Below are positions 7,337-19,609 of a stretch of 20,000 nt of DNA, piece after piece. Location of the stretch: the IMG/VR virus record IMGVR_UViG_3300021255_001403; one strand, 5' to 3'. A model generated the notes under the pieces. The model was not told the origin of the DNA, did no database searches, and saw only the letters and a list, made by a program, of their open reading frames with translations. The position numbers and the translations under genes are program-made. Numbering within the stretch: position 1 is the first letter of the stretch; each line of letters opens with the position of its first letter. This DNA is from an uncultured virus (IMG/VR IMGVR_UViG_3300021255_001403). Its lineage: Duplodnaviria > Heunggongvirae > Uroviricota > Caudoviricetes.

Positions 7337-7363
7337 CTTTTACCTTTTAAAATTAGCTGTATA

Positions 7364-7375
7364 AACATTACTATA
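7364..7375 (+). promoter_or_regulatory. putative phage late promoter AACA-N6-TA
   Basis: AACAttactaTA upstream of the capsid gene leader; exact AR9-type late consensus. Confidence 0.7.
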
Positions 7376-7508
7376 ATACCAGTAGTGCCGAAATTAACCC
7401 TATGCAAGTTTGGGTGAGCTTAAATGCACTATTGGATTAATTATATGAATTTTACGAACTCTTGATAAGAAAGTTAATAGATCAAGGGAAATAAAGGAGG
7501 AAAACGTC

Positions 7509-9530
7509 ATGGCAGTAGTTGGTACTAGCCCTGCTAAGCAGCTCCAAGAGTCGCTTCGCAACTATGAAACAGACCCTATGCGTGGCTTGGCAAAGAAATT
7601 TGCTTCCATCGCACAGGCTGGTATATCTGAAAACGTTGATTTATTTAGTGAACCCACTAAATTTTTCAGTAAATCCGTTTTGAATAATCAGATGAAAGAT
7701 TTCTTTATTAAAGAATCTTTTGACCCCGAAGATCCGGATCTGAAAGGTAAACCGGACGCTGTAAAAGCTGCTTATGCTCAGATGGCTCAGTTATATGAAA
7801 ACGATATCTCTAGCCTTACTGAAGCAGCTCCGCTTGGTGCTTTCAACCCAGTTGTTGGTATTACCTTCCCGATGCATAAGAATCTTCTTATGACTACGGT
7901 ATTTGATAAAGGTGCTATTCCGAAAGATGTCGCTGCTGGTCCGCAGTTCACCTTGACGATGGAAACCCGTACTCTGTATAGTCCGGATGGTACCCAGATT
8001 GATATGTTCTTGGAGCAGAATAAGATTAAAGATATCGTTGAATCTGCTGTTCCTCGTAAGGATATCGTTCTGAAGCTTCCGGAAGACCAGAATACGGATA
8101 TTCTGTCTCTGCTTGGTGCAGCTAACCGTACGACTGCTAACGTATCTCGTGCTTCTAAAGTTACGAAGATTATCGTTAAAAATGTTTGGACGGTTAAAGG
8201 TGAGCAGTATGCTACGGTTGATAGCAATGGTAATGTAACTGCTATTTCCACTTATACTGGTGATGGTGAAGCACTGAATAAGGTTATTCCTATCGAACCG
8301 ATTCGTTTCGTTGCCTCCTATGGTCAGTATGACCGTACGTTCCAGCATCGTATCAACATGATCGTTCCGACTGATGGTACTGGTGGTGTTCGTAATGAAG
8401 AGTTCCAGTTCGCTGGTTCTATGCATAACAACCGTTTCTCCTTCATGACGACTTCTGCTAACGTAACGCATGTAATTCTGAGTGCAGCTCTGGATGTTTC
8501 TTCTGCTGCATATGAAACTCCGAAAGTTAAATGGTCCGCACGTACGGAATTCTTTGAAATCCCCGAAGCACCACATATCACGGTAACCATCTCTCCTGAA
8601 GAGACCCGTGATATCCAGGCTATGTATAATGTAAATCAGTTAACGAAACTGATGAGCATGATCAAGCTGACCTTGGTTAACTACAAAGATGATAAGATTC
8701 TCGAAGATCTTGATATGTCCTTCACGAATCTGCCGGCTACTAGCAAGATTGCTGCTGGTTTCGATTTCGTACCGCCGGATAACTTCCTGGGTAGCCATGT
8801 AACCTGGCGTTATGAAACCTTCATGGACTTCCTCGATACTCATGTAACGACTCTGTTACAGGTATTGAATGATGAAAACATGACGGTTTCCATATTCGGT
8901 CGTCCTGAACTTATTCGTAAGATTACTCCGAAAGAATATACGTATCAGACTCCGTCTACGATTGGTCCTGTTCAGTTAGACTATAAGAAGACGGTTAAGA
9001 CTACTGATAATCGTATCTATCAGTTCATTAGTTCGAACAAGCTGCGTAATGATAATAACCTGATTATTATCCTGAATCCGCGCAACTCTAAACGAGTAAT
9101 GTACAAGATCTTCGATTATCAGCTGTATGTAGGTAATGAAATTCGTGATACGGATAACTATCAGTTACCGGCAATCACCGCTTTCGAGCGCTTCCTCTTC
9201 ATTTCCTATCAGCCTGTACAGGGTCGTATCCAGATCTTCAACCCGACTGGCTTGAAGAAGCATCTGGTTAATAATAATCCTATTGGTAATCGTGCTCTGA
9301 ATGATTATACTGCTAATGAAATTAGCTATGATCATGAAACTGGTAAGTATATTGAATATACTCGTGACCAGCTGCCGAATACGCCGGTTAGCCCGACCAG
9401 CATTATTCAGCAGAGCCCGCAGGAATTCAAGGATGCAGACTATAGCAAGAATGTACCCATCTATTCCCCGAACTACACTAATAGTGATCCTTCTAATCCG
9501 GCTCCGTCCAATCCGAGCACTGGTTATTAA
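7509..9530 (+). CDS. major capsid protein precursor (jumbo phage), 673 aa
   Basis: AAAGGAGG SD, own promoter and terminator; the most biased codon usage in the window (CCG, CTG, CGT, TTC, AAC); about 105-aa helical propeptide ending at LTE|AAP; follows a scaffold-like gene; size typical of jumbo phage capsid precursors. No direct alignment was possible. Confidence 0.75.
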   Translation: MAVVGTSPAKQLQESLRNYETDPMRGLAKKFASIAQAGISENVDLFSEPTKFFSKSVLNNQMKDFFIKESFDPEDPDLKGKPDAVKAAYAQMAQLYENDISSLTEAAPLGAFNPVVGITFPMHKNLLMTTVFDKGAIPKDVAAGPQFTLTMETRTLYSPDGTQIDMFLEQNKIKDIVESAVPRKDIVLKLPEDQNTDILSLLGAANRTTANVSRASKVTKIIVKNVWTVKGEQYATVDSNGNVTAISTYTGDGEALNKVIPIEPIRFVASYGQYDRTFQHRINMIVPTDGTGGVRNEEFQFAGSMHNNRFSFMTTSANVTHVILSAALDVSSAAYETPKVKWSARTEFFEIPEAPHITVTISPEETRDIQAMYNVNQLTKLMSMIKLTLVNYKDDKILEDLDMSFTNLPATSKIAAGFDFVPPDNFLGSHVTWRYETFMDFLDTHVTTLLQVLNDENMTVSIFGRPELIRKITPKEYTYQTPSTIGPVQLDYKKTVKTTDNRIYQFISSNKLRNDNNLIIILNPRNSKRVMYKIFDYQLYVGNEIRDTDNYQLPAITAFERFLFISYQPVQGRIQIFNPTGLKKHLVNNNPIGNRALNDYTANEISYDHETGKYIEYTRDQLPNTPVSPTSIIQQSPQEFKDADYSKNVPIYSPNYTNSDPSNPAPSNPSTGY

Positions 9531-9571
9531 TAAAAGACTCTCCCTAAAATTACATAAATCCCACAATTATT

Positions 9572-9596
9572 CCAGAGGACCTAAATGGTCCTCTGG
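9572..9596 (+). terminator. intrinsic terminator of the capsid gene
   Basis: CCAGAGGACC / GGTCCTCTGG 10-bp stem followed by GATTAATTTTTT. Confidence 0.85.
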
Positions 9597-9618
9597 GATT
9601 AATTTTTTACAGATATAA

Positions 9619-9630
9619 AACATAAGAGTA
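9619..9630 (+). promoter_or_regulatory. putative phage late promoter AACA-N6-TA driving a non-coding region
   Basis: AACAtaagagTA just after the capsid terminator; no SD-led ORF downstream on +. Confidence 0.6.
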
Positions 9631-9775
9631 AAGTGCTATTAATAAACTAGTCTCCTTGAAAAAGAAATAAAGCCTGCTCATCTTTATTTCTTTACTGTTT
9701 CGGGTGTTGCTGATTTGTGTTCCTTTCTATTTCTGTTAAAGAAAAGAGAGTGCGTTAAGCACTCTCCTTTTCTTT
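9630..9775 (+). ncRNA. candidate small RNA A with anti-SD sequence
   Basis: Promoter, hairpin 9661-9693, U-rich single-stranded stretch containing TGTTCCTTTCTATT (9718-9731), then a 16-bp hairpin with one bulge (9738-9775). A further hairpin lies at 9789-9812. Confidence 0.5.
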
Positions 9776-9788
9776 GGGCTTATTTAAG

Positions 9789-9812
9789 GGGGAGAGCATA
9801 ATTGCTCTCCCC
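9789..9812 (+). terminator. GC-rich hairpin, possible terminator of the non-coding transcript
   Basis: GGGGAGAGCA / TGCTCTCCCC 10-bp stem followed by TATTCT. Confidence 0.6.
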
Positions 9813-9831
9813 TATTCTAGTGCGTGAAATC

Positions 9832-9858
9832 AAAAAAAATAACCCCTCCTAAGAGGGG
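9832..9858 (-). terminator. intrinsic terminator of the minus-strand gene 9878-10333
   Basis: CCCCTC / GAGGGG stem (9843-9858) with an A8 run on its left (U tract on the minus strand). Confidence 0.75.
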
Positions 9859-9877
9859 CATTAATTATCTCCTTTAC

Positions 9878-10333
9878 TTATACAGGAAGGGTGGTGATAG
9901 GATACGTCATTTTGAATTTATTCATATCAGTTATACAGATTATATCTATATAACCGTACTCTGATAGAATAACTTCGTCTAAAGTGTATTCCTCATCCAC
10001 CGGCCCATAATAGAATCCTTTACAGGTTTCTATTATTCTAGAATCTTTATCTTCTACCTCCAATTCCAGAAGCCAGTGTTTCTCAAAATTTGCTAAGAAG
10101 CAGAAAAATTTATTTTCTCCCAAAGTCTTTTTCATAGAAAAATTATCTGGAAAATCAACTGAATAATCTGACTTCTTATAAAAGAAAATTCCCTTTCTAT
10201 GAGTATTGATAGCAGAATTGACTGCTCTTAATCTCATAGATCCATACTCACCAATCTTGGTTCTAGCCATAATTGGCTTTCTGGACTTCAGAGTTTTTAA
10301 CTCTGAATCTGACACAAAACGATAAAGTTTCAT
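9878..10333 (-). CDS. hypothetical protein, possible ADP-ribosyltransferase-like fold, 151 aa
   Basis: AGAAAGGAG SD. N-terminal KLYRFVSxxE, central GIFF, and a late acidic DEVIL strand resemble the ART strand order. The CDS is solid, the fold call is weak. Confidence 0.55.
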   Translation of the reverse strand: MKLYRFVSDSELKTLKSRKPIMARTKIGEYGSMRLRAVNSAINTHRKGIFFYKKSDYSVDFPDNFSMKKTLGENKFFCFLANFEKHWLLELEVEDKDSRIIETCKGFYYGPVDEEYTLDEVILSEYGYIDIICITDMNKFKMTYPITTLPV

Positions 10334-10410
10334 GAATGTCTCCTTTCTATAGATAGAGGATCATAGCTATTTTGCATATGTATCTATATACATATAACCT
10401 CTATTCACTA

Positions 10411-10422
10411 CTATAATATATT
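10411..10422 (-). promoter_or_regulatory. putative early promoter ATATA-n-TATA
   Basis: Minus strand reads AATATATTATAG about 80 nt upstream of the 10333 start; resembles the repeated motif at 12356 and 19618. Confidence 0.45.
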
Positions 10423-10478
10423 ATTGTAAATATATCGTTTTACAAAATAAAGAGGAATGATATCTCTCTTTAATGAGT

Positions 10479-10491
10479 AATATAATATAAA
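10479..10491 (+). promoter_or_regulatory. putative early promoter ATATA-n-TATA
   Basis: AATATAATATAAA upstream of element B and the 10616 ORF; also contains TATAAT. Confidence 0.4.
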
Positions 10492-10494
10492 GTT

Positions 10495-10590
10495 ATAGAC
10501 TTTATAGTAAGTTTAATTTATTAGTTGTTCCTTTCTATTCTGCTACGAGAAAGAAGAGTGCTTGGGGTGTGAGCACTCTACTTTCTTTTG
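10495..10590 (+). ncRNA. candidate small RNA / leader B, paralogous to element A
   Basis: Exact copy of TGTTCCTTTCTATT (10526-10539) followed by a hairpin (10548-10586) sharing the AGAGTGC/GCACTCT core with element A and ending in a U tract. Confidence 0.5.
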
Positions 10591-10615
10591 TGTATTTAAA
10601 GGGGAGTGTATGAAA

Positions 10616-10855
10616 ATGACTTTTGTATTAAAAACTGTTCCAGGAGTTAGAGAGATTTATGTACCAACTAATAACAAAGATTTAGAAAGTAAGATGACAG
10701 AGCTAATAGATGCTGTAAATGAAGCTTATCATGATTATAAAGAATCTAAATTGAATTGTAAGAGATCTGATACAGAATATGGTATTTATCATGAAGCAGT
10801 AAATGAAGTATATAGATTCGTTAGAGCAAATCCTGAATGTACAATTAAAATATGA
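10616..10855 (+). CDS. hypothetical protein, about 79 aa
   Basis: AAAGGGGAG SD ending at 10606 favours ATG 10616 (or 10610) over the TTG at 10562, which lies within a hairpin. Confidence 0.8.
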   Translation: MTFVLKTVPGVREIYVPTNNKDLESKMTELIDAVNEAYHDYKESKLNCKRSDTEYGIYHEAVNEVYRFVRANPECTIKI

Positions 10856-10862
10856 ATATAGG

Positions 10863-10888
10863 TGTGCTACCCTTAATTGGGTAGCACA
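10863..10888. terminator. hairpin between convergent genes, probable bidirectional terminator
   Basis: TGTGCTACCC / GGGTAGCACA 10-bp stem. Confidence 0.75.
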
Positions 10889-10891
10889 TTA

Positions 10892-11065
10892 TTAATTATC
10901 ATATTGAGCAATTACTAATTCTACTTTATTCTTTTCCATTGGGCAATCGCTCATAATACTAGTAGGCTTCTTTATATCTTCCCACCATGGTTTCTTATTA
11001 GCACTAATTCTATCTTTTTCGGGAAGATTAGCACTATAATCATTCAATGCTCTAGAAGAATCCAT
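10892..11065 (-). CDS. 57-aa microprotein sharing a peptide with the capsid C-terminus
   Basis: GAGGTGA SD before ATG 11065; own AACA-N6-TA promoter; ends at the 10863-10888 hairpin. Sequence begins MDSSRALNDYSANLP. Confidence 0.8.
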   Translation of the reverse strand: MDSSRALNDYSANLPEKDRISANKKPWWEDIKKPTSIMSDCPMEKNKVELVIAQYDN

Positions 11066-11081
11066 AATTATCACCTCATTT

Positions 11082-11103
11082 GACAAATTATTAATGCACT
11101 GTT
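11082..11103. promoter_or_regulatory. overlapping face-to-face late promoter pair
   Basis: Plus strand GACAaattatTA (11082-11093) and minus strand AACAgtgcatTA (11103-11092) share the TA at 11092-11093. Confidence 0.65.
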
Positions 11104-11122
11104 TAAAAGAGGAGGCTTCTAT

Positions 11123-12322
11123 ATGATGTTTACAAAAACACAATTCAAAAACATGTATGAAGATGTGGAAATATGTATTGCTAATATAAAAATGAACCCT
11201 ATACAGGAATACTTTGATGATTTAAAATTTGCTTTAAATAAATTATTCCAAAGTCAGTGTAGTTCGGTTATTTATACTGAGAATATAGATAAATTATTCT
11301 TCGGTTTATATATAATGCCTAGAATCAATCCTAATGAAACTATCCAAGCTATTACGTCTACTAAAAAGCTTATAGTCAAGGCTTATGATATAGAAATAGA
11401 TTCTAAATTATTCAGTCCCTCTATTGGTCTTACCAATAGAGAAATTACTGCTCTTATTATACATGATATTGGAGCAATGGTATTAGATTCATCTCCAGCT
11501 CAAGAAGTTATTAAAGCTATAGATAGATACTTGGTAGATAATCATCAGGTATTAAAGCTTAGTGATTCTATTCATTATCGTCAGATACTCAATCTTGGGT
11601 TTAGAGATGCTATAAGAAAATGTACTTCCATATTCCAATTAGGTAGTTATAATGTAGAGAAAGATATATTTGCAGACTTTATTGATTGGACTAATTATAA
11701 AGAATCTGTATTATCTGGATTGAATAAGATAGAGAGTACTGGCAATAATATAAATAAGAATCTTGATAATAAATTTATTGTATTATCTTGGTTGATGAGA
11801 GTGTATAATGATGTAGTTGGATATAGATTATCTGTAATAAGATTATGTGAACGTATGAAAGAATTATCTCCCTCTAAGATAGAGAGAAAAGAATTAGATA
11901 CTTTGAATAAACGTATACAACTTATTGATGATGATATGCTATTAGAGTCTAATAAATCTGAAATGGATTTTGAAGGTAAAGAGTTATTAGAGTCTATTAG
12001 ATTATTACAATTTCCTATAGATGATGATGTATACGATTGCTTAAAACGTAGTAAGAATGATTTAGTAGGAATTGTATTACAGCAAGATAATATAGATCCT
12101 AATGAACCTGATGCTATACCAGATCTTATCCATAACATAAATAACTCTATGAGTCATATAAAAGACTATGTAGAGAATCATGAGACTAATAAAGATGCAT
12201 TTAAACAGTTTGATACCATTTATCGTGATATGGCTAAACGTCGTTCACAATTAAATGATGGTAAAATGTATGTAGTAAATTATGGGCTTAAAAATAAATT
12301 TACAAAACAAGAAGATCAATAA
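11123..12322 (+). CDS. putative virion protein with degenerate zincin-like motif, 399 aa
   Basis: AGAGGAGG SD; LTNREITALIIHDIGA resembles the LxxxExxAxxxHExGH zincin helix but lacks the Glu and second His; two LLES candidate cleavage sites; late-type promoter. Confidence 0.55.
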   Translation: MMFTKTQFKNMYEDVEICIANIKMNPIQEYFDDLKFALNKLFQSQCSSVIYTENIDKLFFGLYIMPRINPNETIQAITSTKKLIVKAYDIEIDSKLFSPSIGLTNREITALIIHDIGAMVLDSSPAQEVIKAIDRYLVDNHQVLKLSDSIHYRQILNLGFRDAIRKCTSIFQLGSYNVEKDIFADFIDWTNYKESVLSGLNKIESTGNNINKNLDNKFIVLSWLMRVYNDVVGYRLSVIRLCERMKELSPSKIERKELDTLNKRIQLIDDDMLLESNKSEMDFEGKELLESIRLLQFPIDDDVYDCLKRSKNDLVGIVLQQDNIDPNEPDAIPDLIHNINNSMSHIKDYVENHETNKDAFKQFDTIYRDMAKRRSQLNDGKMYVVNYGLKNKFTKQEDQ

Positions 12323-14123: not shown

Positions 14124-14188
14124 TGTGTATGTACTCTAAGGGCTGGAATGTGGTGGATGTATAATCATCTTTACTAATTAAAATACAT

Positions 14189-14222
14189 ATAAGGAGGTAT
14201 ATATTTATACCTCCTTATTTTT
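14189..14222 (+). terminator. intrinsic terminator
   Basis: ATAAGGAGGTATA / TATACCTCCTTAT 13-bp stem followed by a T run. Confidence 0.75.
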
Positions 14223-17821: not shown

Positions 17822-19609
17822 ATGGTTGAAGTAAATAAAATCAATGATGAGCAATTAACTTACAGAGATCTGAGATTTTATACTCCTAGATACACTTTTG
17901 ATAGGTCTATGTATCCTGAAGGTCAGAAAATTGATGTAGTCTATAGGATTAATAAAAATATTTTTAGAGATCCTAAGAATTATAATAAAACTACACAATG
18001 TTATACTGCTGATCTCGTCAATATGGAAAATACTGACAATCCATATGTACCTCAAATTCCTATTGATCAATGGAGACCACAATGTCCGGAAGACATAATT
18101 TTCAATCATATACGAGGAGCTATCATTGCACCTATACATAAAAAGTATAATATGCGAGATGATGACAAGGCTAACGAAATGATCGACTATTTCTATGTAT
18201 CTTCTAAGAGATGCTATAATAGTGATACCAAGATGAAAAATGGGGAATTAAAAATTGGTTTTCGTGAGCATTGTACAAACTACATGAACTATTTCGAGAA
18301 GTATTATGATACTGAGCATCAATTGTTTGGTTTGTATGCTAGATTCAAATACTTCATTGATTGTGAGTCTAATAGATATACATTAGATATGTTTCTGAAT
18401 GAGCTTTGGACTTATTTCATTAATCCAAATGCTTCTTATACTGCTCACTATCTTAACTCTTGTTTAGATAGAATGAATATAGAGCAGTATAATCTTAATC
18501 TCAATTATAAGAATAATAAAAGTCCTGTACTTGAGTATAGTGATTTCCATGCGCAATTATTATTAAAGATTTCAGTAATGCAGAATATGATGATTCCTTT
18601 GATCACTCACTTCATTACTAAACGTAAGATTGATCCTAAGAATGTAAAATATGTATTATTGAAATCATTCGATCTCTTATTCCAGATAACTAAAGTTATC
18701 TATGGTGTAGACTTAGGTTCTAAGATATACGAAACTGCTACAAGTAACGTTACTAAAAACGTTTCCAATAATAGTTCTCTTTGGGATATGCAGACTATTC
18801 GTGGTAGAAATGTTACTACACATTCTATTGAAACTGTAGAAAACATTTTAATGCAGATTATTCCTAAATACACTTATGATAAGAATATTATCCACTTCAA
18901 CTATAATGCTATAAATAGGGATATCCGTACAAAGGTAACTGGTATATCATACGAATACGGATTTATAGTTTTATCATCTTCTAATCGTGATGATGAAAAT
19001 AATAGTGAGTGTGACAAATTCGAAGCTCATGCTTCTAAGATAAATGAGGCGATAATAAATCAGGTTATGGTTAATTGTCAAAAAGCCATGGATAAAATCA
19101 AAATCAAATATGGCCCATTCGATGAACGGGAAATCGAATTCTATAAACGTGCATTATGTAAAGATGGGAAATTCATAGTAAATAGTTTACAACGTACACT
19201 AGTAGATTATCTATTCGTAAAAGAATTTGATGATACACAGTCTGTACGTATTGTAAATATCCGCGATTATATTATTCTTATAATAGCAGCACGTAGAGTG
19301 CTTGAATCTTATAAAATGTTCCAACTTCCTTATATAATTGGAGGTAGAGTTAATAGAATCGTAACACGTAAAAGCATTAATAAGAAGCAATTACAAAAGA
19401 TCGAATCATCTGAGTATTTCCCACTTATTCATGCTAAATATAATAATGAAAAAATCGAGAAAGAAGTGATTCCATCGCTTATCGCTCAGATTATGTCTTC
19501 TGAATTTCAGACTGTGGATTACTGGCATCCGGAAGCTAATGGTATTCCCATTAACATCATTCCCGATGTTATTGCTGAGGAAGTAAGCAGATTTGTAATG
19601 CTCATATAA
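17822..19609 (+). CDS. putative sigma-like promoter-specificity subunit of the non-virion RNAP (AR9 gp226 / phiKZ gp68 type), 595 aa
   Basis: AGAAAGGA SD; predominantly helical; IIPKYTYDKNIIHFNYNAINRDI resembles sigma region 2.3-2.4 ([25 protein letters not shown]); two genes from the chaperonin, as gp226 is from the gp228 chaperonin in AR9. Confidence 0.6.
   Translation: MVEVNKINDEQLTYRDLRFYTPRYTFDRSMYPEGQKIDVVYRINKNIFRDPKNYNKTTQCYTADLVNMENTDNPYVPQIPIDQWRPQCPEDIIFNHIRGAIIAPIHKKYNMRDDDKANEMIDYFYVSSKRCYNSDTKMKNGELKIGFREHCTNYMNYFEKYYDTEHQLFGLYARFKYFIDCESNRYTLDMFLNELWTYFINPNASYTAHYLNSCLDRMNIEQYNLNLNYKNNKSPVLEYSDFHAQLLLKISVMQNMMIPLITHFITKRKIDPKNVKYVLLKSFDLLFQITKVIYGVDLGSKIYETATSNVTKNVSNNSSLWDMQTIRGRNVTTHSIETVENILMQIIPKYTYDKNIIHFNYNAINRDIRTKVTGISYEYGFIVLSSSNRDDENNSECDKFEAHASKINEAIINQVMVNCQKAMDKIKIKYGPFDEREIEFYKRALCKDGKFIVNSLQRTLVDYLFVKEFDDTQSVRIVNIRDYIILIIAARRVLESYKMFQLPYIIGGRVNRIVTRKSINKKQLQKIESSEYFPLIHAKYNNEKIEKEVIPSLIAQIMSSEFQTVDYWHPEANGIPINIIPDVIAEEVSRFVMLI

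Follow-up and report, generated by a model that had tools for sequence, protein, structure and literature searches.

A predicted late small RNA with an anti-Shine-Dalgarno seed, and an insertion that joins two strain alleles, downstream of the capsid gene of an AR9-like jumbo phage

The DNA analysed here, referred to as the window, is a stretch of 20,000 nucleotides from an uncultured AR9-like jumbo phage of gut samples (IMG/VR record IMGVR_UViG_3300021255_001403). Among its products are a major capsid protein, a split RNA polymerase subunit and GroEL, and its promoter motifs are of the AR9 type. AR9 uses a late promoter with the consensus AACA-N6-TA/G and an AT-rich early motif (PMC5312081), and the same two motifs are used in the window. 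The spacing of six nucleotides between AACA and TA is the commonest one in the intergenic DNA of 8 of 11 relatives, and sigma-70-like sites were observed 5 times in the window against 7.8 expected. A tblastn search of GenBank phages with the capsid protein and the product of gene 17822 gave no match.

The major capsid gene (7509..9530, plus strand; PHROG major head protein, E 1.6e-15) forms the left boundary of a hypervariable cassette site. The small genes between it and gene 11123 differ among the relatives, and from these comparisons we regard the stretch as a cassette hotspot. The capsid gene has a long leader (7337-7508) with a late promoter and a stem–loop, about 88% of which is kept in the close relative L015. 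Toward its 3' end (9100-9450) the window and L015 are 98-100% identical, against 85% overall, which may reflect a recent exchange between the two lineages. A predicted terminator (9569..9599, plus strand) parts the capsid mRNA from the region described below. Between the cassette site and gene 11123 lies a late gene for 57 amino acids (10892-11065, minus strand), whose product shows the motif RALNDYxAN, which the capsid C-terminus has too, as RALNDYTAN. This gene is kept at the same place in L001, L005, L006, L007 and L009, is inverted in L008, and possibly encodes a capsid-tail mimic or an assembly peptide. Structured stretches without an ORF were also seen near the capsid locus of other relatives: a 246-nt stretch with three strong hairpins directly after the capsid gene of G002 (L009, 12026-12271), one with TCCTCCTTCC (L004, 12820-12994) and one with a late promoter and a terminator (L012, 13145-13335). 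Farther downstream in the window a conserved intergenic stretch (14124-14221) carries the motif GGGCTGGA, which recurs in the G002 unit described below; a hairpin here, in front of gene 14222, ties up AAGGAGG on both strands.

The intergenic regions on the two sides of a minus-strand gene at 9878-10333 had been described as carrying the same 14-mer, followed each time by a hairpin with an AGAGTGC/GCACTCT core, and both observations were confirmed. The 14-mer TGTTCCTTTCTATT is found at 9718-9731 (element A) and at 10526-10539 (element B) and is the longest word common to the two regions; a shared word of this length or longer arose in 7 of 5000 Markov-simulated pairs. Plus-strand terminators are called behind it at 9746-9766 and 10555-10579. 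The plus-strand fold has a z of -5.4 for 9700-9825, a stretch that includes the hairpin of an insert described below, and of -2.3 for 10500-10625. The likeness of A and B is longer than first noted, extending over about 85 nt and through a TATTTAA-GGGGAG Shine-Dalgarno (SD) sequence, which in B is the one used by gene 10616 and in A has become enclosed in a new hairpin. In addition, a second anti-SD tract, CTCCTT, which the preliminary description had missed, lies in A at 9652-9657.

The late-type promoter reported ahead of A is present at 9619..9630 (plus strand); its AACA-N6-TA sequence fits the AR9 late consensus (PMC5312081), its predicted start is position 9630 and it is identical in L015. 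The early-type motif reported ahead of B is likewise found, at 10475..10496 (plus strand), but it is weak: it scores 9.5 bits against a training median of 16.4 (10th percentile 5.9), ranks eighth in the window, and scores 10.3 bits when read as its reverse complement. Element B (10526..10606, plus strand) comprises the seed 14-mer, a terminator hairpin with its core at 10555-10579 and the SD sequence at 10601-10606. The case for B as a discrete RNA rests on the weak promoter; B may be a shorter early copy of the unit, or only the leader and terminator of the gene that follows. This gene (10616..10855, plus strand) encodes 79 amino acids, and two homologues of it were found. Type III toxin–antitoxin systems consist of RNA repeats, a terminator and a toxin of the ToxN/CptN/TenpN kind; this arrangement was considered for the locus and rejected, as the 79-aa product behind the terminator matches no toxin family, nor any other entry, in Pfam or PHROG below E 0.03.

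The unit is present twice in the window. A and B had been taken for a paralogous pair flanking the minus-strand gene, but at 3 of 3 relatives' sites examined (L015, L019 and the sheep-gut contig X6) there is a single copy and no such gene between, and the 79-aa gene follows this copy at all of these empty sites, in L015 and L019 directly. A metagenome scan for the unit gave five loci, two of which are the close relatives L015 and L019 and three (L016-L018) chance matches; exact-pattern scans gave no match in viral contigs or genome contigs. The X6 contig, from an independent sheep-gut run, joins position 9787 to 10602, and the same joint is found in L019. Relative to this empty site the window contains an insertion of 814 bases (9788..10601) with a 3-letter microhomology, GGG, at the joint. 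A hairpin at the left edge of the insert (9789..9812, plus strand) swallows the former SD sequence of A. The filled site was also found in run X2, from the possible source sample, with 12 differences from the window in 1220 bases.

Comparison with the two relatives shows that A and B are strain alleles of a single-copy locus, joined by the 814-base insertion. The flanks of L019 are 97.5% identical to those of the window, and its copy is 97% identical to A and 75.5% to B. L015 is 85% identical in the flanks and 96.7% over 90 nt of B, and its likeness to B begins exactly at the 14-mer. The terminator hairpin of A with its U tract (9738..9775, plus strand; 97% to L019) is accordingly of the L019/X6 type and that of B of the L015 type. 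Because A matches L019, and B matches L015 despite flanks of only 85%, we regard B as a foreign allele and not as an old paralogue, and the notion of a paralogous pair was given up.

In the history that we propose, the clade carries behind the capsid gene a module of late promoter, ORF-less unit of about 146 nt, terminator, ribosome-binding site (RBS) and 79-aa gene, the terminator being A-type or B-type by strain and the seed ahead of it unchanged. A donor segment with a terminator, the minus-strand gene under its repeated early promoter cassette and the B-type allele would have recombined into an A-type backbone, with the crossover at the short G-rich homology of the RBS, leaving A on the left side and B on the right. 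A single insertion of this kind is the simplest history and the one that we favour. Two independent deletions from a filled ancestor may have taken place instead, but would leave the closeness of B to L015 unexplained.

The gene at 9878..10333 (minus strand), a passenger of the insert, encodes an ORFan of 151 amino acids without a match in Pfam or PHROG. Its Atlas neighbours are Arr-ms and DarT/PARP at 0.93, its structure neighbours (DUF3841/DUF952) lie under the naming bar, and two remote homologues were found. The ADP-ribosyltransferase (ART) superfamily is marked by the ART fold with an Arg/His in strand 1 and a Glu in strand 5. Y4-R5 is invariant in the three-sequence alignment; the structure models (pLDDT 32 and 42, best Foldseek E 2.1) were too poor to use. 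The gene is plausibly, and in our view probably, ADP-ribosyltransferase-like. It has a predicted terminator of its own (9842..9875, minus strand), situated after the remnant of a lost downstream gene, whose RBS and ATG survive with 14 codons, and is driven by a cassette of early promoter (19.3 bits), stem–loop and RBS (10334..10426, minus strand). This leader cassette is repeated: G002 has four copies at 79-90%, each ahead of a different gene, and in run X2 it reaches a depth of 47.6 against 4-6 nearby, about ten times the local value, with a loose end into another RBS. With its own terminator, the leftover RBS and the repeated early leader, the insert is a self-contained cassette.

A similar arrangement is known from the PeSLs, the mobile promoter/stem–loop cassettes of T4-type phages (PMC2839356, PMC4122927). 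There, too, an ORFan lies between two regulatory elements of roughly 100 bp where a relative has a single element (PMC2839356), the elements are composites of promoter, stem–loop and SD sequence, and the region is hypervariable. A PeSL is repeated many times in its genome; the leader of the ART-like gene, with its copies ahead of different genes in G002 and its depth in X2, is PeSL-like in this respect, and the A/B unit is present twice in the window. The PeSLs differ in having sigma-70 early promoters, whereas the promoters of the window are those of AR9-type virion and non-virion polymerases. The A/B repeat differs as well, being single-copy in the relatives and carrying an anti-SD seed. Judged by these likenesses, the locus is a case of PeSL-like cassette shuffling in the AR9-like clade, with a filled site and two kinds of empty site.

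As to the unit itself, A (9630..9775, plus strand; fold z -4.5) is a candidate late small RNA of about 146 nt. It is laid out as the 5' anti-SD tract, an AU-rich hairpin (9661-9693), an open linker with the seed, and the terminator. The seed 14-mer with its core GUUCCUUUC has a predicted mean unpaired probability of 0.81 and an opening cost of 0.6 kcal/mol, and the unpaired probability is predicted at 0.77-0.81 in A, B and L015. Within the seed, UCCUUUCU equals the last 8 nt of the 16S tail of B. subtilis (tail sequence from PMC5732282). No ATG occurs between the late promoter and the plus-strand terminator, which are 140 nt apart. At paired positions A, B, L015 and L019 differ by five substitutions, all of which leave the plus strand able to pair, through G-U; the stem changes between the more distant genomes G003 and G004 include mismatches. 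A and L015 share identity blocks of 25/25, 20/20 and 24/25 against 74.6% at four-fold sites (1194/1601), a contrast to be read with the facts that the blocks were picked post hoc and that the exchange suspected at 9100-9450 may inflate conservation near A. Contigs of RNA libraries from two studies span the capsid gene as far as 9571 (X19, from the same sample as the possible source) and 9540 (X20), with nothing in 9572-11400; as these contigs have no strand and short RNAs are easily lost, the gap speaks neither for nor against a transcript. In Rfam no match of the unit came near a gathering score. The single-copy unit probably makes a late small RNA that is predicted to be able to cover ribosome-binding sites. 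The original idea of a plus-strand late anti-SD RNA is supported in part for A, by its promoter, terminator, G-U bias and open seed and by the recurrence of the seed in three other lineages; its expression and its repressing action are inferred.

This recurrence came from the six relatives examined first, in which TGTTCCTTTC is intergenic twice, in G002 and in G004, each time between an AACA-N6-TA promoter and a terminator and without an ORF. A 10-mer of the predefined 14-mer was common to promoter–terminator units of two other genomes in 1 of 5000 shuffles, and any 10-mer of A was so shared in 47 of 2000. The G004 unit is kept in G003, where seed and terminator agree at 43 of 43 positions, the value for four-fold sites being 77.5%. 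When 41 records, 39 of them viral, were searched for the pattern, two more carriers came up: G040, which is identical to G004, and G014, whose unit has 15 nt in common with A, the capsid identity being 41%. A comparable unit, with ATTCCTTTCT, is present in G017. In all, GUUCCUUUC lies in intergenic DNA between a late promoter and a terminator in G002, in G003/G004/G040 and in G014, that is, in three other lineages whose units are otherwise dissimilar.

Such seed units are sparse: they were found in 5 of the 39 viral records and in 3 of the 20 near-complete ones, with 3 viral records for the backward-pattern control; the 34 viral records without a seed match include many fragments. Of the 39, 11 were analysed over the whole record. 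With a looser pattern for the seed there were 10 matches among 33 records, including G014, and an IMG/VR-wide scan gave 13 matches against 14 for a scrambled seed, only that in G014 being intergenic with a terminator. Anti-SD content is not a general property of late promoter–terminator units: it exceeded that of shuffles (at or below 0.05) in 4 of 31 units of six relatives. A covariance model (R1) was run over 88 sources; its matches were confined to the window, L015 and L019, with no distant homologue, so the seed may be shared between lineages by convergence. Late-promoter units without an ORF but of another, rod-like build, closed by long stems and containing CUCCUU or CCUCCUU tracts, were seen at L041 (G002, about 265030-265208, minus strand), at the start of L046 (G001, about 40173, minus strand) and at L025 (G002, about 187104); L041 and L025 have no match in Rfam.

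Two other explanations of the unit, both unlikely in our judgement, were weighed against a late small RNA. According to the first, it is a cis-acting 5' leader, an attenuator of gene 10616, in which read-through is held down by the terminator, the anti-SD tract pairing back onto the gene's own RBS; A would then be a leader orphaned by the insertion and B its replacement under an early promoter. The position of the 79-aa gene, behind the single copy at the three empty sites and behind B in the window, agrees with this, as does the A/B likeness that runs on through the RBS, and in the consensus fold the seed pairs with the RBS of gene 10616. Changing the CC of the seed in silico lowers the opening cost of this RBS from 6.2 to 3.6 kcal/mol in L019 and from 6.8 to 5.4 in B, but has nearly no effect in L015 (6.3 to 6.0). 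The other lineages also speak against a leader: the G002 unit ends against a convergent gene, and G003 and G004 keep the unit although the next gene differs between them, that of G004 having an early motif of its own.

According to the second explanation, no more probable than the first, the seed has no function as RNA; it would be what remains of a minus-strand RBS behind a terminator that works in both directions, retained as a short handle for recombination in the shuffling of cassettes. A hairpin followed by AGAAAGGA is indeed the anatomy of early leaders in the clade, a true leftover RBS exists at 9875, a standard start is missing behind 54 of the 528 intergenic SD motifs of six relatives, and G014 and G017 have an opposite-strand ATG at usable spacing (17 and 16 codons). 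That the likeness of B to L015 begins exactly at the 14-mer would suit a recombination handle. Yet on the minus strand neither hairpin has an early or late promoter in front of it (the best scores being below -2 and -7), and the opposite-strand frames, which open from ATC/ATA starts, are not conserved, with 35, 10 and 2 codons in A, L015 and B. A hydrophobic minus-strand peptide in A was rejected as a candidate, for it is not conserved in L015. The G-U bias in favour of the plus strand stands against a leftover as well, and so do the promoters: among the free intergenic sites of 11 records a late promoter lies upstream of 4 of 5 GTTCCTTTC and of 3 of 18 other TTCCTTTC (P 0.046 with G003 and G004 merged). 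As a separate observation, several strong SD sequences in the intergenic lists of G002, G004 and G005 have ATA, ATC or ATT behind them, with an open frame, which suggests non-standard start codons in these phages.

The preliminary description had gone further and made the ART-like gene the target of both elements. The RBS of this gene reads TGTCTCCTTTCTAT on the plus strand at 10337-10350 and can indeed form 10 contiguous pairs with the element, plus 3 more, and at 1.0 kcal/mol this stretch is accessible. Scored with 27 nt around the seed it ranks second of 22 window genes for A and for B; when a longer stretch is used and opening costs are counted, it comes third for A and falls outside the top 8 for B. 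Flank-shuffled controls, which cover A, B and L015, reach the best observed match in 240 of 500 cases for A and 268 of 500 for B. RBSs with GAAAGGA occur in 5 of the 22 window genes and in 223 of 2571 genes of 11 relatives. As the shuffled controls do as well and such RBSs are common, the match is not specific; it is what any GAAAGGA-type RBS gives. Type I toxins are small, under about 60 amino acids, and usually hydrophobic, and the ART-like product of 151 amino acids looks soluble and not like a small membrane toxin. Nor is the complementarity specific and extended as in a type I system, with 10-13 pairs that the controls equal. Although B came in together with the gene, the element occurs without it in L015, L019 and X6, and dedicated antisense antitoxins of the ART-like gene, or a type I toxin–antitoxin-like module, are therefore very improbable.

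For the late small RNA no target conserved across the seed-bearing genomes was found. The top matches of G002 and G003 are homologous genes, but the idea of a common target was rejected on account of G004, where the orthologue ranks 137 of 340. The RNA of L015 has its best predicted partner in gene 17822, with about 18 pairs plus 4 at the RBS (21 of 500 controls reach this), and for A this gene ranks first or second; it was rejected as a conserved target, its orthologues ranking 223 of 314 in G002, 241 of 339 in G004 and 269 of 361 in G003. The gene itself (17822-19609) is a conserved core gene of 595 aa, split in two in G009, G014 and G015, without a match in PDB, PHROG or GenBank phages.

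A class of ribosome-binding sites fits better than a single conserved target, though the evidence is suggestive only. In the five seed-bearing sequences, 36 of 133 genes with an early promoter have GAAAGG in the RBS, as do 5 of 59 with a late promoter; in the other seven the counts are 33 of 148 and 22 of 116. The stratified odds ratios are 4.6 for the seed-bearing sequences and 1.2 for the others, a difference reached by 51 of 792 permutations of the genome labels, and by 89 of 462 if G017 is counted as seed-bearing and G004 dropped. The early/late contrast is absent in G002 (9/35 vs 2/9) and present in the seedless G006.

On these grounds we propose that the phage's non-virion polymerase would make RNA A late in infection, and that its unpaired UGUUCCUUUCU seed would mimic the 16S tail and cover GAAAGGA-type ribosome-binding sites on several mRNAs. 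Early phage genes would be the most likely targets, host genes possible ones, and the RNA would help in their late shut-off; the ART-like mRNA would be one generic target and not a dedicated partner. We give slightly less than an even chance to this reading, a late RNA whose anti-SD seed blocks several GAAAGGA-type mRNAs, in which transcription, pairing and repression are all inferred. A broader version is doubtful and put forward tentatively. In it, late small RNAs of unrelated frames but with one GUUCCUUUC seed would form an early-to-late translational switch acting on GAAAGG-type RBSs concentrated on early genes, the seed–terminator module would be swapped between strains, and the insertion would have put a second copy under an early promoter.

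Among the closest known counterparts are the RoxS/RsaE RNAs, C-rich anti-SD small RNAs of Firmicutes (PMC5419742). Like these, unit A is predicted to have an unpaired pyrimidine seed, which would pair with the SD sequences of several mRNAs and block initiation. Unlike them it is phage-encoded, stands behind a late promoter and has no Rfam match, and its seed corresponds to the last nucleotides of the 16S tail and not to CCCC runs. By analogy it would work like RoxS/RsaE without being a member of the family. Short promoter-to-terminator small RNAs have also been reported from the jumbo phages 201phi2-1 and phiKZ (PMC11512511, PMC8244752), many of them arising by premature termination in the 5' UTR ahead of a gene. 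These were observed by sequencing, in another phage clade with another promoter type, whereas unit A is predicted from sequence; the parts of these accounts consulted give no anti-SD seed or target. For AR9 the portion of the report consulted describes antisense RNAs that overlap genes, not stand-alone anti-SD RNAs (PMC5312081). A literature search by title or abstract start, with most subscription papers outside its scope, found no anti-SD small RNA of AR9-like phages. New here are the explanation by alleles and an insertion and the shared GUUCCUUUC seed.

The locus also teaches caution in reading a single stretch of DNA: what look like 'paralogues' on both sides of a gene may be the alleles of two strains, brought together by an insertion. 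The functions of small RNAs in lytic jumbo phages are almost unknown (PMC11512511, PMC8244752), and the shared anti-SD seed with its bias in RBS class is open to a direct reporter test. If true, it would mean a translational early-to-late switch in AR9-like gut jumbo phages, written in the dialect of their ribosome-binding sites, and would bear on the way in which early genes are shut off in phages that have no more than two polymerases and two promoter classes.
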